From contig JAQUIZ010000001.1 of NCBI GenBank assembly GCA_028683355.1, positions 15,618 to 79,617 on the forward strand: DNA of 64,000 nucleotides, written 5' to 3'. Shown in pieces: positions 2,435-24,210 of this stretch. A program made the position numbers and the translations under genes. How positions within the stretch are numbered: position 1 is the first letter of the stretch; every line of letters begins with the position of its first letter. The notes under the pieces were generated by a model. It was not told where the DNA came from, searched no databases, and worked only from the letters and a program-made list of their open reading frames with translations. The stretch is from Fermentimonas sp. GTDB taxonomy: Bacteria; Bacteroidota; Bacteroidia; Bacteroidales; Dysgonomonadaceae.

Positions 2435-2445
2435 AACATACAGTT

Positions 2446-3950: not shown

Positions 3951-3985
3951 TACAGAGTAAATAATCCATTCAAAGATTCAGAGAT

Positions 3986-4831: not shown

Positions 4832-5340
4832 GCATGAGAAGAATTGTATTGGCATTGGTGGCAATCATTGCATTTGTCATCACCGGCAAGGCACAGAGTA
4901 ACAGCGACCGGCTTTCTTTAGGTGTAGGTTGCCTGTACCAAAATGGATTGGATCTTACCCTCTCCTACGAGCACGAGGGCAAATATCACCATGCTTGGGA
5001 GTTTTTCGCTAACGGTTACATCAAGTGGGCTGAATGCGCCTCCTGCAAGCATATCTGTCCCGAATCATTCTGGAAGAATTACCGAAGCTATGGGTTCGGT
5101 GTCGCCTACAAGCCTTGTGTGGTACGTGGGCGCAATCATTACGGCAATGTTCGTATCGGTGCGTCGGCAGGAAGTGATACCCGTCGTTTCTTGGGAGGCA
5201 TCCACCTCGGATATGAACACAATTATGTATTGCGTGGTGGCTGGCAGTTGTTCTGCCAGGTCAAGACCGATTTGATGATAAAAGGCGAAGACCTGTTCCG
5301 TACAGGTATTGTCTTAGGTGTAAAATTACCATTAAACTAA
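4828..5340 (+). CDS. traO: TraO-like conjugal transfer protein
   Basis: 170 aa with a signal peptide (AFVITGKAQS) and a beta-barrel-like Gly/aromatic pattern. It has a 4-nt overlap with the traN-like gene. Confidence 0.55.
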   Translation: MSMRRIVLALVAIIAFVITGKAQSNSDRLSLGVGCLYQNGLDLTLSYEHEGKYHHAWEFFANGYIKWAECASCKHICPESFWKNYRSYGFGVAYKPCVVRGRNHYGNVRIGASAGSDTRRFLGGIHLGYEHNYVLRGGWQLFCQVKTDLMIKGEDLFRTGIVLGVKLPLN

Positions 5341-5347
5341 GGGAAAG

Positions 5348-6019
5348 ATGAAAAAGAAGATATACAACAAGATAGGCAGACTGGTCGGGATGTTGGCCAT
5401 CACCGCTTTATTCGTGGCTTGTGACGAACACCGGGATTTTCCGGACACGGCAATGAAGCCCTGTCATATCCTATGCACGGACGGAAAAGTATTGTCGGTA
5501 TCGGACTTCAGGGAGTCCGAAAAACAGCCCATTGCCGTGGTGTTCCATATCAATCACGATGAAAACACCGAGGGTAACGGCTATGCCGTCTATCTGTGGG
5601 ATTTGGAGCCATTGGCTTTTGCCGACAGCATAGGCGTTAAGCAAAACACCTCCACTGACATCGCCGCACTGGACGGATTTGAAAACACTTTCGCCCTATT
5701 GGATGCGAGAGAAACATCCTCGCCACTGGCAGAGAAAGTTTTTGATATGTGGAGATACGGCCAATCCGCTTATGTTCCATCGGTGGCACAGATGCGCTTG
5801 CTTTATCATGCCAAGGAGCAAATCAATCCCGTTATCAAGATGTGCGGTGGCGACACGCTGTCCGTTGAAGCCGATGATTGCTGGTACTGGACAAGTACGG
5901 AGGTCAATGAACAACAGACCGCCAAAGCATGGCTCTATTCTATGGGCAGCGGAACGATTCACGATACGCCCAAAATACAGGCTCATAAATCAAGGGCAAT
6001 CATCACATTGAGAGATTGA
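5348..6019 (+). CDS. lipoprotein, possibly with a DUF1566-like C-terminal domain
   Basis: Lipobox LFVAC at the N-terminus. The C-terminal pattern YVPSVAQMRLL...CWYWTSTE...AWLYSMGSG resembles DUF1566/Lcl-type domains, judged from memory only. Confidence 0.5.
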   Translation: MKKKIYNKIGRLVGMLAITALFVACDEHRDFPDTAMKPCHILCTDGKVLSVSDFRESEKQPIAVVFHINHDENTEGNGYAVYLWDLEPLAFADSIGVKQNTSTDIAALDGFENTFALLDARETSSPLAEKVFDMWRYGQSAYVPSVAQMRLLYHAKEQINPVIKMCGGDTLSVEADDCWYWTSTEVNEQQTAKAWLYSMGSGTIHDTPKIQAHKSRAIITLRD

Positions 6020-6055
6020 AAACCAGATTATTAAAGGAATTAGCGAATAATAGCT

Positions 6056-8236: not shown

Positions 8237-8269
8237 GGTAGTCGTAATATATTGTTATTTACACTGATA

Positions 8270-8303
8270 GTGAGGACTGAGACCAACCAATCCTCACTTT
8301 TTT
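8270..8303 (+). terminator. hairpin plus T-run terminator after the coupling-protein gene
   Basis: GTGAGGA (8270-8276) pairs with TCCTCAC (8291-8297) and is followed by TTTTTT (8298-8303). Confidence 0.55.
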
Positions 8304-8331
8304 ATTAGAATAGATTACTCTTATATGTTGT

Positions 8332-10107
8332 TTAATATTTGCGATATTTTTGAATAAATGAATCAGCTTTATCTTTTATTTCTTTGTAATTTTCATAGCG
8401 ACCACCAAACATACCCTGCTTTATTGGCGCCCATTCATTTTGGAGGGAATCTGCACTTTCCCAAAACAAAGTATAAGGTTCTTCTCCCATTCCCCTATGT
8501 TTGTATTCCACTTCACTCCGAGTAAATTGCCCTAATGGAATTGAAAACTCATTTAGGATATAACATTTATTGTAGCCATAAACTAAAGACCTCATTCGTT
8601 CCCAAATATAAAAAGTATTCTCATACTCTGAATCCACAATAAAGCAATCTTTAAATATTGGTTTCAAGGAATTAAAAACAAAAAAACTAATTGGATAATA
8701 ATAGTTCGCTCCAATCAACTCATTCCATGTTTCATAATTCCAGTGGGTACTACCCAACATAGATAACAATTTCCATCTATACGAAACAGACATAAAGTTT
8801 GGAGTCGGCACTGATAATTTCAAGATACTATCAAGCTCCTTATAGCGATTGTATTTTACACAAGCAATACCTATAGCATTAAATAATAACATAGGAGCAA
8901 TTGAGTGTAAATATTGTGTCCCTTCACTTGTTATTTCTCCATTTTTAAAAGTTCTTGTACATAGCTTTACTAATAATTCACCAAAAGGCTTTATATGATA
9001 CCATTTCCCCCATCTTATTGCTAATAATGCTATTTCCATTAGGGGCATAATTGCAGTTTTATGAATATCCAAATATCTTAAAAACGCATCACGTGTTAGT
9101 CCGAAATCATATTTCGCATAGTTATTGATTGTGTTATAAGCATCATTACCCAAGCGTTCAACTAAATCAATATAGTCTATGTCATACTGATTTGATGACA
9201 GATATTTCTTACATTTTGCAATCATCATTTCATGCCCTAGTTTTCTGCTGACATGATTTTTATCTAATGCAGCAACTTGTTCGTACAACTCAGTAAACAT
9301 TTCATCTGCGCCTTCTATAGGGAGTAATTCACCATGTCTTGATATTGATAAAGTATTCAATGTTTCACTCGTCTTTCCTACAAATGCGTAGAATGAATTA
9401 TATCTTGAAACAGAGGGTTCTGTCATAATTTTGACAAGACCCTTGTCCCAATCACCGGACCAACCACATGTTATAAGTCCATAGTCCTCAAAAATCCTTT
9501 CAAGATATTTGTGCATTATTGGAGGATACTCATCCAATTCTTCTGAAGTATTCCTAAATTGGCAATCTATATAATCTCCATTGATTTTGATGATTGTTGG
9601 TATTTGGCAATGAACAAGAGGAGTCGCTTGTGAAATCGCAGCTTCATGCGAGATTACTTGCGGTGCTACACCTTCTGCTTCAAACGCCTGTTCTAATAGT
9701 CTGTCAAAGTTTGTCGTCAAAATAACACGAATGTAACCCTCTTTAGCTAATTTTGCTATTGCTATATGCGCCTTAGTAGGTCGTTTCCAGTCTAATTCTT
9801 TTTCATCTTCAGTGGGCTCAAAAAAAGGTTTCATCAGCTGAACTCGCTCAGTTGGTGTATTTACCAATTCTTCCAATAAAAAGGAGTAAGATGCCTCCTT
9901 CCCATATTTATCTTTAAACCATTGATGAGCATCAGTTTTTATCACTTCTCTGCTTGAAACAGCCAATTGTTCTATCAACCTCGTTTCTACATCCCAACCT
10001 GTTGGGATATGTGCCGAACGCGAGATTCCTGAACCAAGCAGAAGTGCATAGGCTCCTTTGTTGGAATACATAGAAAAAGACAGTGTTGTAAGTCGTTCTA
10101 TACTCAT
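8332..10107 (-). CDS. SIR2-like domain protein with an unassigned ~300-aa helical C-terminal region
   Basis: N-terminal SIR2_2-type motifs: YALLLGSGISRSAHIPTGWDV, VILTTNFDRLLEQAFE, IIKINGDYID, LITCGWSGDWDKG. No domain recognised in the C-terminal half. Confidence 0.85.
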   Translation of the reverse strand: MSIERLTTLSFSMYSNKGAYALLLGSGISRSAHIPTGWDVETRLIEQLAVSSREVIKTDAHQWFKDKYGKEASYSFLLEELVNTPTERVQLMKPFFEPTEDEKELDWKRPTKAHIAIAKLAKEGYIRVILTTNFDRLLEQAFEAEGVAPQVISHEAAISQATPLVHCQIPTIIKINGDYIDCQFRNTSEELDEYPPIMHKYLERIFEDYGLITCGWSGDWDKGLVKIMTEPSVSRYNSFYAFVGKTSETLNTLSISRHGELLPIEGADEMFTELYEQVAALDKNHVSRKLGHEMMIAKCKKYLSSNQYDIDYIDLVERLGNDAYNTINNYAKYDFGLTRDAFLRYLDIHKTAIMPLMEIALLAIRWGKWYHIKPFGELLVKLCTRTFKNGEITSEGTQYLHSIAPMLLFNAIGIACVKYNRYKELDSILKLSVPTPNFMSVSYRWKLLSMLGSTHWNYETWNELIGANYYYPISFFVFNSLKPIFKDCFIVDSEYENTFYIWERMRSLVYGYNKCYILNEFSIPLGQFTRSEVEYKHRGMGEEPYTLFWESADSLQNEWAPIKQGMFGGRYENYKEIKDKADSFIQKYRKY

Positions 10108-10133
10108 AATATCAAATCGTTCAAGTTGTTGTA

Positions 10134-10141
10134 CAAAGGTA
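10134..10141 (-). promoter_or_regulatory. candidate Bacteroides -7 promoter box for the SIR2 gene
   Basis: The plus strand reads CAAAGGTA, so the minus strand reads TACCTTTG (TAnnTTTG consensus). It lies 27 nt upstream of the start codon at 10107. Confidence 0.4.
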
Positions 10142-10216
10142 ACTCTTTTTATTGAGTCGTGACATTCAGATGATAATAAATATTGAGGTAATTCGCAATT
10201 TTTATGGCAAATAGTC

Positions 10217-10265
10217 TTACTTGTATAGTGGTTGATTGAAATAAATTCATTACTTTTGCAAGTAA
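10217..10265 (+). promoter_or_regulatory. candidate promoter and operator of the HTH-mod operon
   Basis: TACTTTTG (10251-10258) fits TAnnTTTG, 29 nt upstream of the ATG at 10287. It is embedded in the inverted repeat TTACTT-ttgc-AAGTAA (10250-10265). A further TTACTTG half-site lies at 10217-10223. Confidence 0.35.
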
Positions 10266-10286
10266 AGATGAATAATATAATCCAAT

Positions 10287-10529
10287 ATGGAAGATACTAA
10301 AGATATAAATCGAATCAAGGTGGTTCTTGTGGAGAAGAAACGGACCAACAAATGGTTGGCTGAACAATTAGGGAAAGACCCTGCCACGGTATCAAAATGG
10401 TGTACCAACACTTCACAACCAGGACTGGAAACATTATTGCAGATTGCCAATGTGCTTGAAGTTGATGTCAAGGAGTTGCTGAACTCCTCTTTGGACGAAA
10501 ACATTCAAATTGTCAGACTTGTCAAATAA
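10287..10529 (+). CDS. XRE-family helix-turn-helix protein, likely R-M controller (C protein)
   Basis: 80 aa with the HTH KWLAEQLGKDPATVSKWCTNTSQP. It lies 27 nt upstream of mod on the same strand. Confidence 0.75.
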   Translation: MEDTKDINRIKVVLVEKKRTNKWLAEQLGKDPATVSKWCTNTSQPGLETLLQIANVLEVDVKELLNSSLDENIQIVRLVK

Positions 10530-10556
10530 CAATACCAACCTTTTATCTCACAGATA

Positions 10557-12512
10557 ATGAATAAGAAAGAATTATATAATAAGATATTGCAGCTTGACGG
10601 TTTGACTAACGAAGAGAAGTCTGAGCTGTTGGGATTGCTGCGTAAGCAAAAGAAATATGGATTGGTATGGGAGGACAAGCCGGAGGATGTGGAAGAACGT
10701 CTGCGCAATGAGTTGCCCGTATTGGTTGAAGACACTTCAAAAGCCATTATCAGTACAGAAGCCGATGCACCTAACCATATTCTCATAGAGGGCGACAACC
10801 TTGAAGTTCTTACCACCCTCGTTTATACGCATGAAGGAAAGATTGATGTGATTTATATCGATCCGCCATATAATACAGGAAAAAATGATTTCGTCTACAA
10901 TGACTCTTTTGTGGATTCTGAAGATGCTTTTCGCCATTCCAAGTGGTTATCATTCATGCACAAGAGACTACGCATAGCTAAGCGATTATTATCTGAGGAT
11001 GGAATAATATTCATTCAAGTTGACGACAACGAATACGCTAATTTGAAATTGCTTTGTGATGAAATTTTAGGAGAGAAAAATGCTTTGGGTCCAATAATAC
11101 AGAACAAATTGAACGCAAAAAACGACACATTGAACATTCAAAAGAATCATGAGTATATTCTTTGCTATCGTAATAGAATTAAAACGGACAAGAGAACATC
11201 CAAAGAGATTCCTATATTACAAAATATTTCCTACGTTAAGAAAGAAGCATATAAAGAACAAGATAAGTTTTATTACCTGAATGACACAATAACTACGCGA
11301 GGTGAAGGAGGTACATTACGAAAACGTCCTAACTTAGGCTATTCTTTTTACGTAAATCCTAACACATTAGATTTTAAAACTGTCCGCGATTATGATTCTA
11401 CAAATATCCCATCATATACTGATGAGACACAAGTTTACAAAGATAATCAAGATATAATTGCAGAAGGCTATTCTGTTATTATAAGGCCTCCTCGTGTAAG
11501 GAATGAGCTTGGAGTGTGGACTTGGGATATGAAAAAGGCAAATGCTGAAAAAGAGAACCTTGTAGTTATAAATAATAGAAATGGATACTCTATTAAAAAA
11601 AGAACATTTGTTGACGAGGCAGATGTGGTTTTACGAGATTCTAAGTATTGGTATGAAAAAACATCAATTGGAAATTCTCGAAGTATTATAGAATTTTCTA
11701 CAAATGATGGTTCTAATACTTTCAATAATGTATTCAGCCATACGGTAAAATTCAATAACCCAAAAAATTTAGAACTAATAATTTATCTGATAAATTTATT
11801 TTATAGAAAGAATATAACTACTCTCGACTTTTTCGCAGGTTCTGGTACAACCCTCCACGCCACCATGCAACTGAATGCAGAAGATGGCGGACGCCGCAAG
11901 TGCATCCTCGTCACCAACAACGAGAATAACATCTGCGAAGAAGTAACCTACGAACGCAACAAACGTGTAATAAACGGCTACACCAATCCGAAAGGGGAAG
12001 AAGTTCCGGGACTGACAGGTAACACATTGCGCTACTATCGCACAAGTTTTGTGGGCAGAAGCCGAAGCATGAAAAATATGCGTCAGCTGATGAATCTCTC
12101 TACCGATATGCTCTGCATTAAGGAAGACCTCTATACAGAGCAACCGAAGTTTGGAGAGCAACAGACCTATAAAAATGTATTCCGCTACTTCGACAATGGA
12201 AAAAAGCGCATGATGATGATCTACCGCGAAGAAGCTGTGCAACAGCTGGTAGATTTAATCCAAAAGACTGACTACGAGGGTAAGATGCTCGTGTATGTAT
12301 TCTCACCGAGCGAAGACCCATGGGAAGGCGAATTTGAAGAAGTTCAAGACAAGGTGCAACTTTGTGCTTTGCCACAAGCTATTTATAATGCCTACCGTCG
12401 CATACTACCTAAGAAAAAAGACGAGCTTATTATCTCTGACGATACAAAAACAACCGTTCAGGAGGATATGCCGAATGGAATGTTGAACTTTGATGAAGAG
12501 GAGGATTTGTAA
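10557..12512 (+). CDS. mod: type III R-M DNA methyltransferase (Mod, beta-class N6A/N4C MTase)
   Basis: Motif IV VIYIDPPYNTGKNDF precedes motif I LDFFAGSGTTLHA (beta permutation). There is a long variable central region, and a helicase-nuclease Res lies downstream. Confidence 0.85.
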   Translation: MNKKELYNKILQLDGLTNEEKSELLGLLRKQKKYGLVWEDKPEDVEERLRNELPVLVEDTSKAIISTEADAPNHILIEGDNLEVLTTLVYTHEGKIDVIYIDPPYNTGKNDFVYNDSFVDSEDAFRHSKWLSFMHKRLRIAKRLLSEDGIIFIQVDDNEYANLKLLCDEILGEKNALGPIIQNKLNAKNDTLNIQKNHEYILCYRNRIKTDKRTSKEIPILQNISYVKKEAYKEQDKFYYLNDTITTRGEGGTLRKRPNLGYSFYVNPNTLDFKTVRDYDSTNIPSYTDETQVYKDNQDIIAEGYSVIIRPPRVRNELGVWTWDMKKANAEKENLVVINNRNGYSIKKRTFVDEADVVLRDSKYWYEKTSIGNSRSIIEFSTNDGSNTFNNVFSHTVKFNNPKNLELIIYLINLFYRKNITTLDFFAGSGTTLHATMQLNAEDGGRRKCILVTNNENNICEEVTYERNKRVINGYTNPKGEEVPGLTGNTLRYYRTSFVGRSRSMKNMRQLMNLSTDMLCIKEDLYTEQPKFGEQQTYKNVFRYFDNGKKRMMMIYREEAVQQLVDLIQKTDYEGKMLVYVFSPSEDPWEGEFEEVQDKVQLCALPQAIYNAYRRILPKKKDELIISDDTKTTVQEDMPNGMLNFDEEEDL

Positions 12513-13594
12513 TGAGCGAGCAGGAGAAGCACAAAAAGAAAAAAGAACAGGTGACGGTACGCAGCAGTGCAGCCGAATACCTGAACTATGTGGCATCTGT
12601 CGGTAATGACGAGCAACAGATAGAGATACGTTATGAAGACGAAAATATCTGGCTCACACAGAAACTGATGGCGATGCTATACGGTGTGGAAGTACACACC
12701 ATCAACTATCACATCAAGAAAATATTCTCGGACAGCGAGTTGCAGGAAACGGCAGTTATTCGAAAATTTCGAATAACTGCTCCTGACGGCAAACAATACA
12801 CCACGAACCACTATTCATTGGAAATGATTATTGCCGTCGGATTCAAGGTGAATTCCGAGAAAGCTGTGCAGTTCAGGAAATGGGTAAATGGTATTGCTAA
12901 GGAATACACCATCAAAGGCTGGGTGATGGACTCGGAAAGACTGAAACGTGGAACCTTTCTGACAGACAAGTATTTCGATGAGCAATTAGAGCGCATCCGC
13001 GAGATACGCATGAGCGAGCGTCTGTTCTATCAGAAAATAACAGACCTTTATGCCACAGCCGTTGACTACGATAAGACAGCATTGGCCACCCGTCGATTCT
13101 ATGCAACGGTACAGAACAAAATGCACTTTGCCGTTCATGGTCATACAGCAGCCGAACTCATTGTGGAACGGGCAAATGCATCCAAAGAACACATGGGACT
13201 GACTACATGGGCTGATGCCCCCGATGGCAAAATCAAGAAAAGCGATGTGGTGATAGCAAAGAACTATCTTTCAGATACCGAAATGGGACAATTGGAACGC
13301 ATGGTTACGGCTTATCTTGATTTTGCAGAAACAATGACCATGCGCCATATCCCATTGACTATGGCAGATTGGGAACAACGTCTGAACAACTTTATCAATC
13401 TCTTTGAATACGGTCTGTTGAAAGATGCAGGACGTGTAAGTGCCGAAATAGCACGATTACATGCAGAGACGGAATTCGAGAAATACAGAATCATACAAGA
13501 CAAACTGTTTTTGTCTGACTACGACCGCTTTCTATTGGAAATGAAAGAGATTGAGAACAAAAACCATGGAAACAAAAAAGAGGAGAAGCAATGA
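12512..13594 (+). CDS. rhuM: RhuM-family protein embedded in the R-M operon
   Basis: IEIRYEDENIWLTQKLMAMLYGVEVHTINYHIKKIFSD and AVGFKVNSEKAVQFRKWVNGI match my memory of RhuM-family sequences. Its start overlaps the mod stop (TAATG) and its stop overlaps the res start (ATGA). Confidence 0.75.
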   Translation: MSEQEKHKKKKEQVTVRSSAAEYLNYVASVGNDEQQIEIRYEDENIWLTQKLMAMLYGVEVHTINYHIKKIFSDSELQETAVIRKFRITAPDGKQYTTNHYSLEMIIAVGFKVNSEKAVQFRKWVNGIAKEYTIKGWVMDSERLKRGTFLTDKYFDEQLERIREIRMSERLFYQKITDLYATAVDYDKTALATRRFYATVQNKMHFAVHGHTAAELIVERANASKEHMGLTTWADAPDGKIKKSDVVIAKNYLSDTEMGQLERMVTAYLDFAETMTMRHIPLTMADWEQRLNNFINLFEYGLLKDAGRVSAEIARLHAETEFEKYRIIQDKLFLSDYDRFLLEMKEIENKNHGNKKEEKQ

Positions 13595-15954
13595 AGAATT
13601 TAGAATATCAACAAAGAGCGGTAAACGAATTGATTGACAAGACTATCCGTCTACTGAATGCGGGCGGACAGCGCAATAAATTGGTGTTTGAAGCCACGAC
13701 CGGTGCCGGTAAAACCGTAATGGCGTGTCAGATGCTTGCCGGTCTGATGGACGAACTGCATGATCGGGGCGACAGCCGTTATCAAGAAGTGGCATTCATT
13801 TGGTTCGCTCCTCGCAAATTGCACATACAGAGTTACGAAAAGTTGAAAGACACCTTTGAAGAGACTCGCACACTTCGTCCCGTAATGTTTGATGAACTTG
13901 ATCAGAACGAAGGCATCCGCCCGGGTGAAATACTTTTCGTAAACTGGGAAAGCGTTAATAAAGAAAGTAACGTGATGGTGCGCGAGGGTGATTGTTCGTT
14001 GTCACTTTATGAAATTACAGACAAGACGAAAGAAGAATTCGGTTTGCCTATCATAGCCATCATCGACGAAGAACATATGTTCTGGTCAAAGACTGCGGAT
14101 AAGTCGGCTGCCGTACTTGACAAAATCAATCCTATGGTAGAAATCCGCATCTCCGCCACACCTAAAACCGCCAACCCAAAGGAAAAAGTAACGGTGTATC
14201 GTCAGGATGTGATAGCCGCCGAAATGATTAAGAAAGAGGTGGTACTCAACCCGGAGATAGAACTGAATTTCAGCGATGAGCTGGAACTTAATGCCAACCT
14301 TATCAAAGCGGCTTCGGATAAACGTAACCAAATAGCAGAAGCATATAAGTCAGTAGGTTCAGACATCAACCCTTTGCTACTCATTCAGCTGCCTAACGAT
14401 ACAAAAGAAAATATGACGACGGAAGATGCTGCCATAGCCGATCAGGTAAAGAAGTATCTTGAAGTGATGTGTGGTATTACCACCGACAACCACCGTCTGG
14501 CGATATGGCTTGCAAATGAGAAAGAGAATCTGACCGATTTAGAAAAGCCTGACAACCTGACTGAGGTACTGCTTTTCAAAGAAGCCATAGCCTTGGGTTG
14601 GGACTGTCCTCGCGCCGCCGTGCTACTTATATTCCGCAAACTGCAAAGCGACCAGTTTACTATTCAGACTGTTGGTCGTATTATGCGTATGCCGGAACAG
14701 AAGCATTATCCCAAAGAGATGCTCAATGTTGGCTATGTGTTTACCGATATAGCTAAAGACAAGATACAAATCGTTACAGCCGATGCCGACTATATCCTGA
14801 ACAACACTGTTACAGCCTACCGCCGTGAGAATTTGAAAAATGTATGGTTGCCTGCCTGCTATGCGGAACGTCCCAATATAGAACGTAACTATTTAGGGCC
14901 TGACTTTCGCAAAGTGCTCTATGATGAAGCCCGACATTTCTGGGACTTTGCAGAAGGCAATTTACTGTTCTCGTTAGAGGAATTAGCCAAGCTGGATAAT
15001 ACTAATGACGAAAGCGGTCCATTACCTGAGACTGATGACCTAAAAATCAATGAAAATAGGAAAAAGGTAACCAACTCTTTACGCCTTGATGTCAAGAACA
15101 TCAACATTGAGATACCGCAAGACGTACATTTCCAGAACGAGGAACAGATATTAGAAGTTGATACCGTAAAATACGCAAGAAAAGCTACTGAGATTGACCG
15201 CGTGTTTATGGCATACATCGCCACAAAAGGGCATCAATTCGAGAGTAAAGGTCGCGCTGACAAAATTGCAAGTTATCTGCTTGAAATATTGGCCGACTTC
15301 TTCGGTATCTTCGACACAGACGCCAAAAAGGTGGTGCTATATCACTTAAACAAGCCTAAGTTTGACCGCATTATAGACATGGCACTGGAGAAATATGCCC
15401 GTATGCGCGATAGAGCCAAGAAAGCATCTGCAGCCAAGAGAGTATTCAAAAAATACGATTGGGAGGTGCCTGAAGAACGTACTTACGACAATGACACCAA
15501 TCATATAGAGGAAAGCCGGAATCACGCACTCCTGCCATTTGTGCAACTCAACCAGGCATCGAGTCCGGAAAAGAACTTCATAGCCTATCTGGAGCAAAAC
15601 GGACAGTATATAGATTGGTGGTACAAGAATGGAGACAACGGCAAACAGCATTATGCCATAGAATACAGCACCGGCAACGAAAACGGCAAGTCGCTGTTTT
15701 ATGTGGATTTTATCATCCGTATGAAAAACGGTCATATCTATCTCTTCGATACCAAAAGTGCAGGCAGCGACGCATTTGCACACAACAAGCACAACGCATT
15801 GCTGCAATACATCAAAGAAAACACTTCGGACGAAACTCCATTATCGGGAGGTGTCATCCTGCAGCAAGGCGAGAACTGGTTATATTCCCCACTCCCTATC
15901 GAGAATACCACCGATACATTGAACTGGAACTGTTTTTACCCACAAAACGCATAA
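13591..15954 (+). CDS. res: type III restriction enzyme Res subunit (SF2 helicase plus C-terminal PD-(D/E)XK)
   Basis: Walker A EATTGAGKTVMA, DEAH-like IIDEEHMFW and motif VI TVGRIMRMP. The C-terminal nuclease-like motif is FYVDFIIRMKNGHIYLFDTKS. Confidence 0.8.
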   Translation: MKNLEYQQRAVNELIDKTIRLLNAGGQRNKLVFEATTGAGKTVMACQMLAGLMDELHDRGDSRYQEVAFIWFAPRKLHIQSYEKLKDTFEETRTLRPVMFDELDQNEGIRPGEILFVNWESVNKESNVMVREGDCSLSLYEITDKTKEEFGLPIIAIIDEEHMFWSKTADKSAAVLDKINPMVEIRISATPKTANPKEKVTVYRQDVIAAEMIKKEVVLNPEIELNFSDELELNANLIKAASDKRNQIAEAYKSVGSDINPLLLIQLPNDTKENMTTEDAAIADQVKKYLEVMCGITTDNHRLAIWLANEKENLTDLEKPDNLTEVLLFKEAIALGWDCPRAAVLLIFRKLQSDQFTIQTVGRIMRMPEQKHYPKEMLNVGYVFTDIAKDKIQIVTADADYILNNTVTAYRRENLKNVWLPACYAERPNIERNYLGPDFRKVLYDEARHFWDFAEGNLLFSLEELAKLDNTNDESGPLPETDDLKINENRKKVTNSLRLDVKNINIEIPQDVHFQNEEQILEVDTVKYARKATEIDRVFMAYIATKGHQFESKGRADKIASYLLEILADFFGIFDTDAKKVVLYHLNKPKFDRIIDMALEKYARMRDRAKKASAAKRVFKKYDWEVPEERTYDNDTNHIEESRNHALLPFVQLNQASSPEKNFIAYLEQNGQYIDWWYKNGDNGKQHYAIEYSTGNENGKSLFYVDFIIRMKNGHIYLFDTKSAGSDAFAHNKHNALLQYIKENTSDETPLSGGVILQQGENWLYSPLPIENTTDTLNWNCFYPQNA

Positions 15955-15959: not shown

Positions 15960-16178
15960 ATGGCAAAAGGAATAGACCCCAAATTTGTACATTACGGCAT
16001 CCGCAAGGATGATCTTGCAATGATAGAAGCTATTTGCGCTACCGAAGACATAGATTTTGATTGGCTGAGTGAGGACATCTTGAAAGCCTACCATGCAAAA
16101 AAAGTGGATGTAATCGAAATGAATGATGGCGATACGGAAGAGATAATCCGCAACGCCATACAGAAAATACGTCAATAA
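15960..16178 (+). CDS. 72-aa acidic protein of unknown function
   Basis: ATG at 15960, 5 nt after the res stop. The longer ORF-track entry (15615-16178) overlaps res out of frame. The gene is tightly packed before the DndD-like gene. Confidence 0.55.
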   Translation: MAKGIDPKFVHYGIRKDDLAMIEAICATEDIDFDWLSEDILKAYHAKKVDVIEMNDGDTEEIIRNAIQKIRQ

Positions 16179-16191
16179 ATGAATTTACGCC

Positions 16192-18192
16192 ATGCTCATA
16201 CAAAGAATAAAGATTAGCAATTTCAAGACTTACCTGTCGCTCGACCTCGATTTAACGGTAGATGACGACCGCCCTATTATACTCATCGGTGGTTCAAACG
16301 GTGGAGGTAAAACCACCCTGTTCGAAGCTATAAGCGGTGCATTGTATGGATTGAAAATAGAGAACAAGGAACACTTTATGGAATTGCTCAATCAAGGGGC
16401 AGTCAATCGGGTGAAGCCAGAAATCAGTCTGCAAATCACCTTTGTTGGCAAAGTGCTTGGTCAGCAACAGAAGTATATCCTAAAACGCATATACCAGCTT
16501 AATCCACAAGGTCGTCCGCTTGAAAGTGTATCGCTGAACATGAACGGCAATATGTATGTGTATGGCACAATGACTGCACCCAAAGAAAGGGTGCGGGCTG
16601 AACAGGAAATCAGCAAGATAATCAAGGCCAACCTGCCGCAGGAATTGAGCCAGTATTTTCTGTTTGATGCGATGCAGTCGAGCGAGTTACTGAAAAAGAA
16701 TGTTTTTCAGCAGACCATACGCGACAACTTTGAGAATGTGCTTGGCTTCAAAAAGTATCTGCAACTGAAACGTGCAGCAGAGAAATTACAACAAGAGTGG
16801 GCAGAACAACGATTGGAAGCAGAAAAAGAAGCCAAAGAATACAACTCGTTATGCAATCAGAAAGAGCAGTTGGTAATTGATTTGAACACTTGCCTTGCAG
16901 AGCAAGACAGGTTGTATAAATATCTGTCATCGGTGGAAGATGAATACCAGCGAGCTAAAGATGGTGCGCAACAGGCTGCCAACCTAAGCAAACGTATACA
17001 GGACGTTGACGGTAAAATACGAGCCATAGCTGAGGAAGCTGCCATTTATGCAGAAAACTTGAAGATATTTATAAACAACATAGAAATCAATGTATTCCTT
17101 CCCAAATTGGCCTCCAACCTTTCTCAGGAAATCAACAATATATTACGAGTAAAGGAACAACTCCAAAAACAGAGCACTGGTGCCTATCCGATTGAGACAC
17201 TTCGTGATGTAACGTCAAAAATTATAGACTATTTGAAAGAGCTGTCGCTATGCAGTCAAGCAGTGGATGAAGAAAACGTGGTCTCGCATATTGTAGCCAT
17301 GCAGAACACAACCAATGCCAAAGATCCATACGACTACTTGAACACTGCCGAGGTGGATGCACTTCGGGAACTGCCGAAAAAAGGCAATGGCAACCAATTC
17401 GTTTCCATTGACCGCAAAAGGCAGGATATGGAAATACAGCTTGCCAACCTGGATAATCTCAGGACCGAGAAGCGCACACTTGAACAGACACAGGCTGGAG
17501 GAAACGGTTTACTTATAGTCAACTATGAAGATGCCAAACGTTCTGTGGAGAAGTTGAAAACGCAAGAAGACAGTCTCAAAAACGAGATTCAGCGTTTGGA
17601 AAAACGTATTCATCAATTCGATGTACAGATACAGCAGGAACCGGATGTGAAATTTGATACACTAGTCAAGTTGCGTCCGTTCTTCGATAAAGTGGCAGAC
17701 AATCTGCTGAAAAAGAAAAAGACTCAGATAGAAACAGAGATGCAGTCGCAACTCAATCGCCTGCTGGTATCATATAAAGGACATGTAGGCCGTGTGGAAT
17801 TGTCAGACAGCATGGAGAATTTCAATATCAAACTCTATCACAGTGCAGGCAATGAAATATCGTTGAACCAGCTGAATGCTGCTTCAAAGCAGATATTCAT
17901 ACAGGTATTGTTGAAAGTGCTACGCAATCTTGGCGACTATAACCCACCGGTTATGATTGATACCGTGATGGGTGTACTTGACAATGAAAGCCGTGATGCT
18001 TTAATGGAAGAATACTTTCCACAATTGGCAGAACAGACCATTCTGCTCTGTACTACATCGGAAATACGCACGGATAGCGACTATATAAAACTGGAGCCAT
18101 TCATCTCGAAAACATATACTCTGCATCGTAATGTAGAGGAACAGAATACAACTATAGATGAAGGCTATTTTGGAATACCCCTTAATCAGTAA
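16192..18192 (+). CDS. DndD-like / Rad50-SMC-like ABC ATPase
   Basis: Walker A LIGGSNGGGKTTLFEAI and a long charged, coiled-coil-like middle. The C-terminus PPVMIDTVMGVLDNESRDALMEEYFPQLAEQTILLCTTSEI resembles the DndD Walker B/D-loop end. Confidence 0.8.
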   Translation: MLIQRIKISNFKTYLSLDLDLTVDDDRPIILIGGSNGGGKTTLFEAISGALYGLKIENKEHFMELLNQGAVNRVKPEISLQITFVGKVLGQQQKYILKRIYQLNPQGRPLESVSLNMNGNMYVYGTMTAPKERVRAEQEISKIIKANLPQELSQYFLFDAMQSSELLKKNVFQQTIRDNFENVLGFKKYLQLKRAAEKLQQEWAEQRLEAEKEAKEYNSLCNQKEQLVIDLNTCLAEQDRLYKYLSSVEDEYQRAKDGAQQAANLSKRIQDVDGKIRAIAEEAAIYAENLKIFINNIEINVFLPKLASNLSQEINNILRVKEQLQKQSTGAYPIETLRDVTSKIIDYLKELSLCSQAVDEENVVSHIVAMQNTTNAKDPYDYLNTAEVDALRELPKKGNGNQFVSIDRKRQDMEIQLANLDNLRTEKRTLEQTQAGGNGLLIVNYEDAKRSVEKLKTQEDSLKNEIQRLEKRIHQFDVQIQQEPDVKFDTLVKLRPFFDKVADNLLKKKKTQIETEMQSQLNRLLVSYKGHVGRVELSDSMENFNIKLYHSAGNEISLNQLNAASKQIFIQVLLKVLRNLGDYNPPVMIDTVMGVLDNESRDALMEEYFPQLAEQTILLCTTSEIRTDSDYIKLEPFISKTYTLHRNVEEQNTTIDEGYFGIPLNQ

Positions 18193-18198
18193 ATAGTT

Positions 18199-19785
18199 AT
18201 GAGTATAATAAACTTTTCAAATACCCGTCAGATGGAGGGGATTCTTGACGAAATAAGTCAAGTAAAGGAACTTATCGAGAGTAAGATAAATTTGTCGCGC
18301 ACCGCCGACAGAGAAAAACGTGCAAGTCTGACTGCAAACAAGGTAATGCGCATTTGCTTTATAGTCGGTTTGAGTCTGACAACAGAACGCAAGGAAGAAG
18401 AATACAAGGATATACAGCTATCTGCCACATCGGCACGTATCGTTCCGAGCTTCTTCACGATGCACGATTTATCTACCTTATATTCTGCATTACTGAAATT
18501 GCGCTATGCCAATCTGAATATAGATTGGTCACAAAATGCCGTGCTTTCACGCATTATTGCAGCCGAAATGCTGCGTGGCAGAGACTACCTGTTGATAGAC
18601 AATAATTTGGATTCCATATTATACGCCGTAAACAACAAGGTTGCAATGGTAAAAGATATTCCTGCCCTGAACTTGATAATAGGCAACTATGGCGATGTGG
18701 AAATGGAGGCTACTCTTGATATCAACAGCCGTGACATTACCAATTCGCAAATCATCATTGCAGGTGCTACGGGTTCAGGAAAGACGAATCTGCTTGCAGT
18801 GCTGATGCAACAGTTCAGAGCATTATCGTCTGAATCGCAATATCCGGTAAACTTCCTGCTTTTCGATTACAAAGGAGAGTTCAGCGACATTCAGAACAAT
18901 CACTGGCTTTCACATTTCGATGTGGATCGCAGCTGTATCTTAGACCCGATTGAGCATCCCCTACCGTTCACGCCGTTCAAGGATTTTACAGACCGCCCAA
19001 TCAACGAAATAAATCTTTATTCATCCGAAATGGCTTCGGCTCTATGCTCAATTGACCGAGTATCAGCCAGTGCAAATATGAATAACCGATTGAGTGAAGC
19101 CATTGTAGAAGCATATAAGAAAACAGAAGGCGCGCCCATTACATTCAACATGATGTTGGAAGAATATCAAGCCAAGATGACAGATGCCGGAAAGGACGAC
19201 AGCATTTCGTCTGTATTGAAACAGTTGGTGCGTGCTAACATCTTCGAGGAGGAAGACAAAGCCAGCCTTATCGATGACTGCTACATCATAAAAATGGACG
19301 GCTACCCCAAAGACGGCCCGATAGCAAAGGCTATTGTCTATTTCATTATCTCAAAGCTTAATAATATATACGAACAACTCGAAAAACAAGCGACTAACGA
19401 GGATGTAGTGCAAATCCGCCATTTCTCGATCATTGACGAAGCGCACTATATGCTGGATTTTGACAATCGCCCATTACGGAATCTGATTGCCGTAGGCAGA
19501 AACAAGGGATTAAGCATTATCCTTGCCACCCAAAATATGAGCAGTTTCAAGAGCAAAGGCTTTGATTTTTATGCTAATGCCCAATATCCGCTCATCATGA
19601 AGCAGCAAACTATTGACGACAAGGTTATCAAAGACCTATATGGGGTAAGCGGACAAGAACTGCAAGAGGTGCGTACTGCCATAGCCGGACTCCAGAAAGG
19701 CGAACTGATTATCAAAGACCAAATGGCCTTTGCTTTGGGTATGGGTAAGAAATATAAGAAAATCAATGTGACACATTTGATATAA
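18199..19785 (+). CDS. HerA/FtsK-like P-loop ATPase with an unassigned N-terminal domain
   Basis: Walker A IIIAGATGSGKTNLLAVL, Walker B FSIIDEAHYMLD and LSIILATQNMSSF. The first ~170 aa have no recognisable motif. Confidence 0.75.
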   Translation: MSIINFSNTRQMEGILDEISQVKELIESKINLSRTADREKRASLTANKVMRICFIVGLSLTTERKEEEYKDIQLSATSARIVPSFFTMHDLSTLYSALLKLRYANLNIDWSQNAVLSRIIAAEMLRGRDYLLIDNNLDSILYAVNNKVAMVKDIPALNLIIGNYGDVEMEATLDINSRDITNSQIIIAGATGSGKTNLLAVLMQQFRALSSESQYPVNFLLFDYKGEFSDIQNNHWLSHFDVDRSCILDPIEHPLPFTPFKDFTDRPINEINLYSSEMASALCSIDRVSASANMNNRLSEAIVEAYKKTEGAPITFNMMLEEYQAKMTDAGKDDSISSVLKQLVRANIFEEEDKASLIDDCYIIKMDGYPKDGPIAKAIVYFIISKLNNIYEQLEKQATNEDVVQIRHFSIIDEAHYMLDFDNRPLRNLIAVGRNKGLSIILATQNMSSFKSKGFDFYANAQYPLIMKQQTIDDKVIKDLYGVSGQELQEVRTAIAGLQKGELIIKDQMAFALGMGKKYKKINVTHLI

Positions 19786-19800: not shown

Positions 19801-21390
19801 ATGATAGAACGCGTTGTTATCAAAAATTTCAAAGGAATAAAGGATGCAGACATTTCCTTTAACGATAAAATCAATATCATTGTAGGAAATAATGGAGTAG
19901 GCAAATCCACTCTTATAGAAGCAATCGCAATAGCTTTAGGGTATGGTATCAATCAACTTGAAATCACCCAGTATCTTTTTCACGCAACAACGTGGAAAGA
20001 TTTTGACGAGAGGAAGACCTTACCTGAGATTGTTATTGAGTTGTACTTCAATGAATCATTCTCTGCAGAATACTCAGGAAAGAACAATAGTTTATCGCTG
20101 TTAGCACCTGGAATCAGATTAAGAATTGCTTGTGATAATTCTTATTTAACATTATTTCAAGAGCAAAAAGAACAATACAAGCATATACCATGTGAGTTTT
20201 ATATCATTGACAGACATTGGTTTTCTGGAGAAACTGTCAAACAATTGCTAATTCCTTTCACTCCTTGGATAATAGACTCATCATCTAACACCTTTAACAA
20301 TAAAGCCAATCAGTTAGCTACACGCCTAATTTCGCATAAACTATCTGATACAGAACGTGTACAAGTCAAAGGATGTTTGAGAGCACTTAGAGAACATTTC
20401 GAAAGCGACAACAAAGTCAATGAAATCAACACTTCGCTAAATGATAAAATAAAGGACGTGTCTCCAGACTTTAAATTGACTGTGGATTTAACTACCAAAA
20501 CAGCATGGAATACAATTTTATGTCCTGTTTTAAAAGATATTCCTTTTTCCCAAATCGGTTTAGGAGATCAGTGTATTGTCAATACCCTCTTATCACTTGA
20601 TTCATCAAACAAGATAGAACGAAAAGAAAAATTATTGATTGTTGAAGAGCCAGAATCTCACTTATCTCATACAAAAATGTATGAACTACTGAACTGTTTA
20701 GACGATTTTAAAGGACAAATATTTATAACCACACATAGCAGTTATGTTGCGAATAAGTTATCTCTTAGTAATTTGCTAGTATTAGGGAATGAGAATGGAA
20801 AGATTTGCAATCAAAAAATTTTCGATTTAGATGACTATAATTTCTTCGCCAGAGTTCCAAACTATCCAACTTTACGGATTGCTCTGTGTAAAAAAGCAAT
20901 ACTAGTTGAAGGTCCTACTGATGAAATGGTATTATTATATCATTTCATGAAAGAATATCAATGTCATCCATTTGCCATGAACATTGAACTTATTTCTGTT
21001 GGAGGAGTAGTATTTAAACATTTCGCTCAATTAGGAGCTACACTTAATAAAAAAATCGCCATAATCACTGACAATGACTCATCTCCACTTGAAGAGCTAA
21101 AAAAGAAAAGAGCTATTAACCAAGAACTAAATGTTAGGCTATTTTCTGAGGAAAACACTCTAATACATACATTAGAGCCTGCTTTTGTTCGTGCAAATCT
21201 CAGTAATATTGATAAATTATCATTGTTGGTTAGAGGAAAAGTTGAATCAGAAGAAACAGAAGAAAAGTTATCGGACTATATGGTAAAACATAAAACTGAG
21301 TGGGCTCAAAAATTATTAGAAGCCAAATCTTATGATTATGATGTTCCGCAATATATAAAAGACGCAGTAAATTGGTTAGTTAATGGTTAG
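19801..21390 (+). CDS. gajA: OLD-family ABC ATPase-TOPRIM nuclease (GajA-like)
   Basis: Walker A VGNNGVGKSTLIEAI and Walker B LLIVEEPESHLSH. The TOPRIM Glu is in AILVEGPTDEMVL and the DxD motif is in IAIITDNDSS. Confidence 0.8.
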   Translation: MIERVVIKNFKGIKDADISFNDKINIIVGNNGVGKSTLIEAIAIALGYGINQLEITQYLFHATTWKDFDERKTLPEIVIELYFNESFSAEYSGKNNSLSLLAPGIRLRIACDNSYLTLFQEQKEQYKHIPCEFYIIDRHWFSGETVKQLLIPFTPWIIDSSSNTFNNKANQLATRLISHKLSDTERVQVKGCLRALREHFESDNKVNEINTSLNDKIKDVSPDFKLTVDLTTKTAWNTILCPVLKDIPFSQIGLGDQCIVNTLLSLDSSNKIERKEKLLIVEEPESHLSHTKMYELLNCLDDFKGQIFITTHSSYVANKLSLSNLLVLGNENGKICNQKIFDLDDYNFFARVPNYPTLRIALCKKAILVEGPTDEMVLLYHFMKEYQCHPFAMNIELISVGGVVFKHFAQLGATLNKKIAIITDNDSSPLEELKKKRAINQELNVRLFSEENTLIHTLEPAFVRANLSNIDKLSLLVRGKVESEETEEKLSDYMVKHKTEWAQKLLEAKSYDYDVPQYIKDAVNWLVNG

Positions 21391-22555
21391 AAACAATATT
21401 TGTTACATAGCATCCGCTGGTGCTGGTAAAACGACCAAATTGGTTAAAGATGCAGCAATTAATGCGACCAATGATTCTTGCAAAAAAATTGCAATTATCA
21501 CATACACACAGAATAATCAAGCCCATATTAGAAGTAAATTAGAACAATATGAATTTGGTTATAAAATTGTTGTAATGGGTTGGTTTGAGTTTCTATTAAA
21601 GCATTGGATAACACCATTTAAGACGATGATTTTTCCACACCTAATTGATTCTCATATAGGCATAGCTCCTGTTGAAGGCAAATCTGGAATTAAAAAACTC
21701 TCAGATGGAAGAACTTTTGTTGCTTATCAAAAGGAAGATTACAGTAAAAAATATCTAACCACTGAAGGATCTAAAGTATATACTGATAAAATATCGGAAT
21801 TAGCCTATGAATTATATACAAGAAACGAAACAGATGTGATCGAAAGGTTAAATTCCATATTTGATTTTTTATATTTTGATGAATGTCAGGATTTTGTAGG
21901 ATACGATTATGAAATCCTGAAAATATTACTTGTAAAGTCTAAGATTTGTTGTGTCCTAGCCGGAGATCCTCGTCAACATACATATTCGACACATGCAACT
22001 TCAAAGTATAAAAAATTTTCTGGAGATATTGCAACTTTCATTCAAGAAAACATCAATAGAAAAAGAAAACAATATGTAATCATAGATAAAACAAGTCTTG
22101 TCAAATCTCACAGATGTCCGCCATCTATATGCAATTTTGCAAATGTAATAATGTCTCAATTTCCCAAAATGGAATCTGCTAATATGCGATATTACCAAAC
22201 TGAACATTGCAAACTGGTTAGGCAAAAAGACGCTGAAAATTATATAAACAGATTCAATCCCATTGCACTTATCTGGAACCATAGCGCAAAAGATAAAGTA
22301 CACTCAAATATTAGCAGAATATACAACATGGGGGAAGTTAAAGGTCTTGACTTTCTGAATATCATCGTTTATCCAACAAAAACTATGGAAAAGTGGATAA
22401 AAGATACAAATACAGAATTATCAAGAGAGGCACGAGCCAAATTATATGTAGCTGTTACACGAGCGGAAATATCAACAGGAATAGTTGTTCCTGACGATTT
22501 TCATATTCCATTAAATTCTAAGATTCAATTTTGGGACAACAATTCAGGCATATAG
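21383..22555 (+). CDS. gajB: short UvrD-like SF1 helicase (GajB-like)
   Basis: Motifs ASAGAGKTTKLV, LYFDECQDFVGYD, LAGDPRQHTY and LYVAVTRAEIS. It overlaps the gajA-like gene by 8 nt. Confidence 0.75.
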   Translation: MVRNNICYIASAGAGKTTKLVKDAAINATNDSCKKIAIITYTQNNQAHIRSKLEQYEFGYKIVVMGWFEFLLKHWITPFKTMIFPHLIDSHIGIAPVEGKSGIKKLSDGRTFVAYQKEDYSKKYLTTEGSKVYTDKISELAYELYTRNETDVIERLNSIFDFLYFDECQDFVGYDYEILKILLVKSKICCVLAGDPRQHTYSTHATSKYKKFSGDIATFIQENINRKRKQYVIIDKTSLVKSHRCPPSICNFANVIMSQFPKMESANMRYYQTEHCKLVRQKDAENYINRFNPIALIWNHSAKDKVHSNISRIYNMGEVKGLDFLNIIVYPTKTMEKWIKDTNTELSREARAKLYVAVTRAEISTGIVVPDDFHIPLNSKIQFWDNNSGI

Positions 22556-22655
22556 GACAATAACACTATGCCTGATCGTTTATGCTAAGTATTTTAAAGA
22601 ATAATTCTTTTGAATACATGAAATAGATAAATATTAACAAATTAGACAAATAAGT

Positions 22656-23183
22656 ATGAGTATGCCAGATGATAGAAGACCAAGAATTATCGACGTAACA
22701 CGCAAGCCGACAAAATGTCCAGATTGCGGTGAAAGAGTCGTTGATATAATTTATGGTACTGGAGATATGACTGAAATTGAGTTTGCACTTCAATACAGAA
22801 AAGAAGCCATTATGGGTGGAGACAATATACCTCGTCGTCCTCCAATATGGTGTTGCTCGTGTGGATGCAAACGATTTAGAAAAGTGAATCCTGATGGAAC
22901 GGATGCTCCAGTAAAAGTAAAAATGCTGAAAAACATCCGTAAAGCACCTGCCTCTAAAATAAATTGGAGTTCAAAGATGATTGAAACAGCCTTAGATAAC
23001 AAGGATATCTATACTATACATCACTATCATGCAAAGATAATTACTGAACTTGGTGAATGTGAAACTCTTTCTCTAACTGCCGTAAGTACTGAAGATGCAA
23101 AAGAACTGGCAAAAGAATTAGTATCAAGTGGTTTACTTGGACTTGACGGTCGTACTTGTATGAATATAGAATTTATAGAATAG
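22656..23183 (+). CDS. zinc-ribbon protein, function unknown
   Basis: 175 aa. CPDCGERV ... WCCSCGCKRF forms a Cys4-type ribbon, with an unassigned C-terminal half. It lies 7 nt upstream of the next gene. Confidence 0.55.
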   Translation: MSMPDDRRPRIIDVTRKPTKCPDCGERVVDIIYGTGDMTEIEFALQYRKEAIMGGDNIPRRPPIWCCSCGCKRFRKVNPDGTDAPVKVKMLKNIRKAPASKINWSSKMIETALDNKDIYTIHHYHAKIITELGECETLSLTAVSTEDAKELAKELVSSGLLGLDGRTCMNIEFIE

Positions 23184-23190
23184 TTCGCAA

Positions 23191-24210
23191 ATGGAAAAGA
23201 CAATCGATGGAGTAGTATACTATCTTCCGAGTAATTTAACATCGGAACAAGAAGCCATTTATGTTCACATCATAGACTGGAAGCGAAAATACATCACTAC
23301 GCAAAGAGGTTTATACAGGGGACATGAATACGATGCTATATTCCCAGATGAGAACCCTATCCCAGAAATGCTGTACAAACCGATAATACCATTGCTGAAT
23401 GAAATGCAACAAGGTAAATTTGCTTATAAACCACATAAGTTTGCCTATCACGCCGTAAGTTCACAGACTGCTTGTATCAATCTTTTCATGCCTTTACTCC
23501 TTTCTGAAGATGCAGACAGCATATTACCTATGATTCCAGGATGTCCTGCGGACTTCAGTAAGATAGCAAGAGACAAGTTGTTCAGTGGATTCTGTTTTGA
23601 ATATTGGGGACAAGACATTAAACAAGGCACAGGTGTATTGAATGACCATTCCAGCCAGGCCGGAACGGATGCGGATGTCGCAATTGCGTATTATAACAAG
23701 GAAGACAAATTATGTCTATGGCTTATAGAACATAAACTGAGCGAGAAAGAGTTTACAATGTGCGGTGCATACAAAAGCAAAGCAAATAGAAACAAGCATA
23801 ATTGTTCTCAATGTGATTTCATGAGTATAGCCAAAGAGCCTCAGAAATGCCATTATCACAAGATAGGATATGAATACTGGAATATTCTAAAGAAAAATAT
23901 GGAAAGATTCCAAGGTTTAATTGAGATTGAAGGCTGTCCATTCAAAAACGGACTTAACCAGCTATGGCGTAATCAGATGCTTGCATTTGCGTTGCAGGAA
24001 ACAGGAGAGTATCATACAGTAACTTTCTCGGTATGCCATCATGCAAGAAACACCATGTTAGACAAGTCAATCAATCGATACAAAGCATTAACCTGTGGAG
24101 ATAGAATATTCAGTTCTTTCACCAACTATGATGTTTTGAATGCTGTAACTACGCACGATTATGATTTGCCAAAATGGATACAATGGTATAAAGAGGTCTA
24201 TTGCTTTTAA
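23191..24210 (+). CDS. PD-(D/E)XK nuclease-like protein with a Cys/His-rich insert
   Basis: HAVSSQTACINLFMPLL is followed by GTDADVAIAYYNKEDKLCLWLIEHKLSEKEF (a D ... E-x-K core). After that comes C-x13-C-x2-C ... C-H-x-H. Confidence 0.6.
   Translation: MEKTIDGVVYYLPSNLTSEQEAIYVHIIDWKRKYITTQRGLYRGHEYDAIFPDENPIPEMLYKPIIPLLNEMQQGKFAYKPHKFAYHAVSSQTACINLFMPLLLSEDADSILPMIPGCPADFSKIARDKLFSGFCFEYWGQDIKQGTGVLNDHSSQAGTDADVAIAYYNKEDKLCLWLIEHKLSEKEFTMCGAYKSKANRNKHNCSQCDFMSIAKEPQKCHYHKIGYEYWNILKKNMERFQGLIEIEGCPFKNGLNQLWRNQMLAFALQETGEYHTVTFSVCHHARNTMLDKSINRYKALTCGDRIFSSFTNYDVLNAVTTHDYDLPKWIQWYKEVYCF

Follow-up and report, generated by a model that had tools for sequence, protein, structure and literature searches.

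The question raised by this locus is what a small acidic protein, a DndD-like ATP-binding cassette (ABC) ATPase and a HerA/FtsK-like ATPase do when they are encoded side by side behind a restriction gene. The locus lies in a 64,000-nucleotide stretch of Fermentimonas sp. (Bacteroidales) DNA, positions 15,618 to 79,617 of contig JAQUIZ010000001.1 in assembly GCA_028683355.1; the whole stretch is called the window below. Three packed genes on the + strand occupy 15960–19785, with gaps of 5, 13 and 6 nt following the res stop codon at 15954, as the original prediction had described. They encode a 72-aa protein (SP), a 666-aa ABC ATPase and a 528-aa protein with a HerA-type ATPase domain. Judged by sequence, the three open reading frames (ORFs) are real genes and not chance ORFs, because they give strong profile matches, have more than 1300 homologues (the figure for the 528-aa protein) and carry near-invariant catalytic motifs. 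In gut Bacteroidales, the unit consists of five genes; the trio is its back half and is not free-standing, since the order of a type III-like methyltransferase (Mod), a type III-like restriction subunit (Res), SP, ABC ATPase and HerA protein is kept in 94 of 95 loci across unrelated neighbourhoods.

The loci compared came from two sources. A scan of one-genome-per-species representatives gave 380 matching stretches, the best 80 of which are almost all from Bacteroidales, the closest being from Bacteroides nordii (98%). Metagenome contigs contributed more than 400 matching stretches, and when the most divergent members of the family served as seeds for a metagenome scan, it yielded window-type loci only. 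Colinearity was judged in loci with at least 7.6 kb of upstream DNA, on 50 genome contigs and 45 metagenome contigs; the contexts of family members P0121–P0127 (46–62% identity) were left out of the locus comparison. The five genes are colinear in 49 of the 50 genome loci and in all 45 metagenome loci, on one strand, with short gaps, at HerA identities of 62–98% and in many unrelated neighbourhoods. Three unrelated chromosomal neighbourhoods have in common only the series Mtase-(RhuM)-ResIII-Sp-DndD-AAA_23-HerA. The exceptional locus, L071, from a metagenome-assembled genome, retains only an ABC fragment and HerA at 9582–11572; this truncated remnant resembles a copy in decay. About 3.3 kb is inserted between the SP and ABC genes of one Segatella copri genome (L078), at about 4640–7990.

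Two of the roles that had been proposed for the trio are thereby separated. A self-contained two-ATPase module, independent of type III restriction–modification (R-M), is not supported in this lineage, whereas the colinear block agrees with an accessory coupled to the type III Res upstream. A third proposal, coupling to the downstream OLD nuclease of a Gabija system, is not supported either: the window encodes genuine GajA and GajB, yet Gabija adjoins the trio in only six of the 95 loci, which speaks against it as the functional partner. A SIR2 gene is present in the fetched DNA of two loci. The trio is a conserved syntenic unit and is not embedded in dnd/ssp clusters; where gene calls of related loci were listed, they included no dnd/ssp sulfur genes. 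Identity to the window, correlated across 115 loci, is most closely shared by HerA and the ABC ATPase (0.97), followed by HerA and SP (0.89), HerA and Res (0.81) and HerA and Mod (0.40).

The colinear block is always headed by the gene for the type III Mod methyltransferase (10557–12512, + strand; 651 aa), which matches Pfam N6_N4_Mtase with 119 bits and PADLOC MTase_III with 305 bits; the PADLOC release used throughout was v2.0 (2023). Mod has a DPPY motif at residue 102, and its central part, for target recognition, is variable. Of all members of the block it is conserved least, with a median identity of 49–51%, and can often be aligned at the ends only. A search of mod for a phase-variable repeat found none. 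Res (13591–15954, + strand; 787 aa) comprises an SF2 ATPase and a C-terminal PD-(D/E)xK-like motif; it matches Pfam ResIII with 57 bits and, partially, PADLOC REase_III with 56 bits. The motifs are ATTGAGKT (residue 35), IDEEH (158), SATP (188), QTVGRIMR (359), FYVDF (703) and LFDTK (718). Motif conservation was judged over about 130–160 related copies per motif; SF2 motifs I, II (DEEH), III and VI, together with FY(V/P)D(F/Y)...(L/I)FDTK, are kept in all 134 copies spanning the nuclease region. Neither single-sequence nor profile searches revealed sequence similarity of Res to solved structures, and no Pfam domain was assigned to its C-terminal half. Res is likely to be the effector of the operon, with a putative PD-(D/E)xK-like nuclease. 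The remark that the trio has no visible effector is true inside 15960–19785, but the adjacent, co-conserved Res bears this nuclease-like motif.

SP (15960–16178, + strand) is an acidic protein with a pI of 4.7 and 16 acidic versus 10 basic residues. Previously left without assignment, it belongs to a known Pfam family, Sp-DndD (PF20306; 35.2 bits against a cut-off of 27.2), described in Pfam as ‘Sp-DndD, small protein found in certain Dnd DNA modification systems’. No literature on Sp-DndD or PF20306 was found among the searchable papers. The SPs of distant systems (L089 7111–7296, L090 5866–6051 and L091 7130–7345) align in PADLOC with the C-terminal ~55 aa of DndC (four models) and of a type II methyltransferase (one model, MTase_II). 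This match with the C-termini of DndC and methyltransferases suggests that SP may be a free-standing copy of the tail that docks modification enzymes onto DndD, and SP is proposed to be a docking adaptor for the ABC ATPase. The window SP matched no PADLOC model, even at E values up to 5, and is tied to the DndC-tail likeness solely via shared Pfam membership.

The ABC ATPase (16192–18192, + strand; 666 aa) has a long coiled-coil insert and matches the PADLOC models DndD (208 bits) and PbeC (182 bits), both over the full length. With TIGR03185, the NCBI DndD equivalog, it scores 178.4 bits, under the cut-off of 245.85. Because this score is below the cut-off while PADLOC DndD matches at full length, the protein is, on its profile scores, a paralogue within the DndD clade rather than DndD proper. 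The motifs quoted for it in the original prediction were all confirmed, GGSNGGGKTT at residue 33 and VMIDT at residue 587, and Walker A and the ‘MIDT...LD’ motif have been retained in the copies. The ABC signature motif (window positions 17872–17892, residues 561–567) reads LNAASKQ in 151 of 152 Bacteroidales copies; in the distant family it is the canonical LSAGEKE. A CxxC/CxC hook is absent from the aligned coiled-coil region of the window ABC ATPase and its relatives.

The third protein of the trio (18199–19785, + strand; 528 aa) consists of an N-terminal domain (18199–18654) and a HerA/FtsK-type ATPase domain (18655–19785; Pfam DUF87). In the latter, the motifs GATGSGKTN (residue 189), IIDEAHYML (411) and ILATQNMSSF (441) were likewise confirmed; Walker A lies at 189, Walker B at 411, the Arg finger is R434 and the sensor is Q445. 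The HerA ATPase motifs are invariant in about 160 copies. The closest solved structure to the ATPase domain is 7ES4 (the DptH/DndH C-domain), both by sequence (phmmer E 1.9e-11) and in a Foldseek comparison of the AlphaFold 2 (AF2) model (E 8.5e-22, target TM-score 0.83; predicted local distance difference test score (pLDDT) 86). The best PADLOC DndH model aligns to residues 150–508 of the protein with 104 bits.

The N-terminal domain, formerly described as unassigned, can now be placed. The nearest further relatives of the protein in a library of 1.8 billion proteins are about 500 aa long and about 18–25% identical, and 19 of 26 aligned relatives have Pfam DndE at the N-terminus (best E 8e-20). 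The window protein itself is below the Pfam DndE threshold, its domain being too diverged. Aligned with hhalign, the N-domain of the window protein matches those of the relatives with a probability of 64% and an E value of 6.6e-5. The AF2 model of the N-domain (pLDDT 85.7) has the order strand–helix–helix, strand–helix–helix, helix. In a Foldseek search of the PDB with this model, the top 15 matches were all DndE (4LRV, 7X4E and 5WTU), with target TM-scores of 0.55–0.72, or 0.65–0.72 for most 4LRV chains, and a best E value of 0.026. Taken together, these four results indicate, at the fold level, that the N-terminal 150 aa form a DndE-like double ribbon–helix–helix (RHH) domain. The earlier statement that dndA/B/C/E and sspA/B/D are lacking holds in part: dndA, dndB, dndC and the ssp genes were not seen in the 29 window ORFs scanned with Pfam, which cover 10 of the 14 listed ORFs of at least 280 aa in 27–64 kb, but DndE is present as this fused domain.

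The same trio is reused in other lineages. DndE::HerA fusions of other phyla, named ‘DndE family protein’ by NCBI, are always preceded by SP and a DndD-like ABC ATPase. Nine distinct distant contexts were compared, and the genes called in them include no dndC. In eight of the nine, a partner gene or block lies upstream of SP on the same strand. Five contexts (L089, L090, L091/L092, L093 and L094) have a nuclease-domain/N6-methylase fusion and a type I S subunit upstream, with variable cargo (DarT-Macro, AAA_15 and HNH, RAMA or NOV_C) in between. In three loci of a Flavobacteriia-type subfamily (L176 5536–11578, L177 4859–11581 and L178 5533–11581), the trio stands behind a 730–960-aa protein with multiple helix–turn–helix (HTH) and associated domains (RNA_pol_A_CTD, Sigma70_r4, HARE-HTH and HA).

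The pairing of the two ATPases has a precedent in computational work. Section 22 of the survey by Rakesh, Aravind and Krishnan (NAR 2024; PMC10853773) devotes one sentence to a pair formed by an ABC ATPase related to DndD and a DndE-HerA/FtsK protein, placed within phosphorothioation systems; it cites Krishnan et al. 2020 for the pairing and assigns the HerA/FtsK part to ‘clade-3’. In the same source, DndD and DndE figure as a core that scans DNA and to which partners for modification and restriction are recruited. The claim that the combination is not a named system is thus correct insofar as no PADLOC system-level model fits, the listed matches being to the single models DndD, PbeC and DndH and, weakly, mad8, but the pairing itself had already been noted. 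The three-gene core is therefore known from computational prediction, and it is abundant in gut Bacteroidales; experimental work on the operon was not found in the literature searchable here. Compared with the neighbourhoods mentioned in that section, the window has the same trio, including Sp-DndD, and an ATPase akin to the DndH C-domain. The differences are that no sulfur-modification genes were found in the window or in the nine distant contexts, where methylase-based modules or multi-HTH partners are found instead, that the DndE-like domain of the window misses Pfam DndE and that its ABC signature is degenerate.

The operon also shares parts with several characterised types of system. The closest in gene order is PbeABCD of the CxC-ABC group, which the survey, in its account of these systems, recasts as a helicase-nuclease, a small protein, a CxC ABC ATPase and DndE (PMC10853773); according to the same account, methylases can stand in for phosphorothioation in Pbe/CxC systems. 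As there, an SF2 helicase-nuclease is followed in the window by a small protein, a coiled-coil ABC ATPase and a DndE-type binder, whereas the window lacks a CxC/Zn-hook, has DndE fused to HerA, uses a type III Mod as its methylase and has a PD-(D/E)xK-like Res with no PLD/HKD match (PADLOC PbeA 14.6 bits). The small protein occupies the position equivalent to PbeB; SP matched no model of the PADLOC release, whose coverage of PbeB is unconfirmed. With type III R-M of the EcoP15I type, the operon shares Mod followed by a predicted SF2-ATPase/PD-(D/E)xK Res, as both proteins are recognisable by profile and motif; it differs in that its lineage adds three fixed downstream genes, only distant Res relatives being two-gene systems. 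The similarity to DndFGH is limited to the ATPase domain, for which 7ES4 is the best match in sequence and structure: the window protein has 528 aa against about 1700 aa and corresponds to the DndH C-terminal ATPase region only, the other seven DndH domains being absent, and no matches to DndF or DndG were obtained. SIR2-HerA and DUF4297-HerA likewise employ a HerA-type ATPase in defence (Foldseek E ~1e-9 to their HerA structures), but NF042943 (HerA_antiphage) reaches 16.7 bits where its cut-off is 800, and the operon contains neither SIR2 nor DUF4297. Membership in MADS was rejected: only mad8 matches (75 bits, the ATPase part), the listed PADLOC matches of the window Mod, Res and ABC ATPase include no mad models, and in the distant relatives mad2 and mad5 are weak, with generic type I methyltransferase and S-subunit models scoring far higher.

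These data are compatible, with about an even chance of being right, with a fixed add-on: the trio would complement type III-like Mod and Res in one integrated five-gene operon for methylation-based restriction. In such an operon, the variable recognition domain of Mod would determine the site at which Mod marks the DNA of the host. A coiled-coil dimer of the DndD-like protein, together with the DndE-like double RHH domain, would bind and scan DNA, and the attached HerA/FtsK ring, presumably a hexamer, would pump it at the expense of ATP. SP may dock the ABC ATPase to its partner enzyme, as is presumed for the homologous C-terminal tail of DndC in phosphorothioation systems. Once unmethylated DNA has been brought in by these steps, the PD-(D/E)xK-like domain of Res would cleave it. 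The trio would then widen or speed type III restriction and would not act independently. A broader proposal is more tentative, namely that SP, the DndD-like ABC ATPase and DndE::HerA form a portable, ATP-driven scanning and translocating core that is combined with at least three unrelated front ends, type III Mod/Res, a type I/IIG-like nuclease-methylase with an S subunit and a multi-HTH protein, and that turns them into a distinct multi-motor restriction class independent of phosphorothioation, of which the Bacteroidales operon would be a new R-M type widespread in the human gut.

Several observations weigh against the integrated operon. Contact of the trio with Res or Mod is something that we infer, as are the role of SP, translocation and the cleavage outcome; what the sequences show is the make-up of the operon, the identity of its domains, the synteny, the conserved motifs and the modular reuse. 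In L011, L160, L164 and L169, Res is 52–53% identical to the window protein and the trio 85–94% (HerA 94%); in L066 the discordance is reversed. On sequence grounds, this indicates recombination at the res/SP junction, and therefore an exchange of Mod-Res alleles against a stable trio, so that any interface between Res and the trio would be generic or absent. Among IMG/VR contigs predicted to be viral or prophage, full-length Res relatives of 27–36% identity (L180–L213) form simple two-gene Mod-Res units that lack SP, ABC and HerA genes in the vicinity, and the trio is thus dispensable for the basic enzyme. The multi-HTH loci have neither an adjacent methylase nor a recognisable nuclease, and in L095, the exception among the distant contexts, nothing lies directly upstream of the trio and a type I system is a few kb off. 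The DndE-like call for the window N-domain has moderate scores, and the alignments supplied to AF2 included genuine DndE-HerA sequences. The residues of the ABC signature normally contact ATP across the dimer, and the degenerate motif of the Bacteroidales lineage may make the ATPase cycle atypical.

Some of these points also fit with Mod and Res restricting alone and with the trio as a guard or back-up, which would monitor Mod/Res or incoming DNA for anti-restriction proteins or stalled complexes and trigger a second response, with SP as a decoy or negative regulator. This is rather unlikely, and equally so are the forms that the response might take: cell suicide, or DNA pumping or clamping that keeps the invader from replicating or segregating. 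The self-sufficient two-gene Res relatives speak for such a role, Res allele swapping against a constant trio fits a loose functional link, and the two ArdC-like anti-restriction genes of the host element indicate an arms-race setting. In its sections on CxC/Pbe systems, the survey proposes the related small proteins as negative regulators or as interactors of viral triggers and cites PbeABCD as acting without DNA degradation (PMC10853773). However, SP is not fast-evolving, its median identity across loci (63–75%) being equal to those of the ABC ATPase and HerA; Pfam and PADLOC found no toxic effector domain in the trio; and the strict operon order with tight gaps favours stoichiometric co-production. 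The lack of an effector domain also counts against the trio as an independent defence system, placed beside mod-res through defence clustering or joint inheritance. The separate recombination of Mod and Res alleles and the different partners that precede the trio in other phyla, in one locus with no methylase directly ahead of it, would be natural in that case, but an independent system is improbable given the 94 colinear single-strand loci with short gaps, spread over unrelated neighbourhoods and a wide range of HerA identities, the rarity of the other defence genes of the window (Gabija and SIR2) at the same loci and the same-strand partner upstream of SP in all distant contexts other than L095.

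The remaining alternatives concern functions outside methylation-based restriction. The DndD-like ABC ATPase, the DndE-like N-domain, which recalls at the fold level the pairing of the DndE double RHH protein with an ABC ATPase in DndABCDE, and the resemblance of the SP family to the DndC tail could all belong to a remnant or split Dnd phosphorothioation system with dndA and dndC elsewhere in the genome. This is very improbable: neither DndC (PAPS-reductase-like) nor DndA/IscS was found in the scanned window ORFs or in the listed 10-kb flanks of related loci, the ABC ATPase stays under the DndD equivalog cut-off and the modification slot is filled by a methyltransferase. Hardly credible at all is a service of the two ATPases to the conjugative transposon, in DNA processing or transfer and not in defence. 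The window is a Bacteroidales conjugative element with TraM, TraN, a coupling protein and Mob_Pre, and ATPases of the HerA/FtsK/VirB4/TrwB type and TraY-like double RHH proteins are described in the survey as working in conjugation (PMC10853773), but the block is also found in chromosomal neighbourhoods without transfer genes and is consistently tied to mod-res.

The role of DndD-DndE in phosphorothioation is hard to disentangle from sulfur chemistry. In the five-gene operon, which occurs in gut Bacteroidales that can be cultured, the same core has a HerA motor and is combined with conventional methylation and a nuclease that can be recognised. If the trio does alter the range of type III restriction, a widespread obstacle that phage and gene transfer meet in the gut microbiome would be explained, and the recruitment of SMC-like and FtsK-like motors to restriction would be demonstrated. 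The record is also corrected in one respect: DndE-HerA fusions, mentioned in section 22 of the survey among phosphorothioation systems, have no link to phosphorothioation genes in any context examined here.

Two optional genes accompany the operon. A RhuM-family gene (12512–13594, + strand; Pfam Virulence_RhuM 349 bits, PADLOC PDC-S05 475 bits) lies between mod and res, overlapping them by 1 nt and 4 nt, respectively; as it is found there in just 21 of 95 loci, it is optional cargo inside the operon. A small XRE-type HTH protein of 80 aa, an optional upstream regulator, is encoded at 10287–10529 (+ strand); its homologue in L001 matches HTH_3/HTH_19, and a small HTH gene precedes the operon in 35 of 95 loci. 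A scan for sigma-70 promoters and terminators remained at background level, Bacteroides promoters being outside such a scan. The plasmid collection gave no match. The sole match in the phage collection, L179 (MT835906.1, ‘Bacteriophage sp.’, human faeces, unverified), is a 15.6-kb unannotated contig with the whole Mod-Res-SP-ABC-HerA block, and its phage label is doubtful.

The window is a conjugative transposon of Bacteroidales that contains a cluster of defence genes, and the operon is carried here as its cargo. The genes of the element at 1–8236 and 25067–61495 include TraM, DUF4138 (TraN-like), a coupling protein, DUF4099, PcfJ and a Mob_Pre relaxase. The Gabija pair (19801–22555, + strand; GajA 427 bits, GajB 306 bits) begins 15 nt past the HerA stop codon, as if co-transcribed. 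It is followed at 22656–24210 (+ strand) by genes for a 175-aa protein without a Pfam match and a 339-aa REase-ARP/PDDEXK_13 nuclease, which may be another small defence pair. A SIR2-like protein of 591 aa (PADLOC PDC-S65, 611 bits) is encoded at 8332–10107 on the − strand, opposite to the operon. The two ArdC-like anti-restriction genes are located at 34525–36462 and 38936–40648, AbiEii at 48556–49620 and two GmrSD-like genes at 57690–61495. The G+C content is 0.32–0.36 in 8001–12000 (SIR2, HTH and the 5′ part of mod) and 20001–24000 (Gabija and REase-ARP), 0.41–0.44 over 12–20 kb (the 3′ end of mod, RhuM, res and the trio) and 0.45–0.53 in most flanking transfer-gene regions; these steps fit a mosaic defence island.

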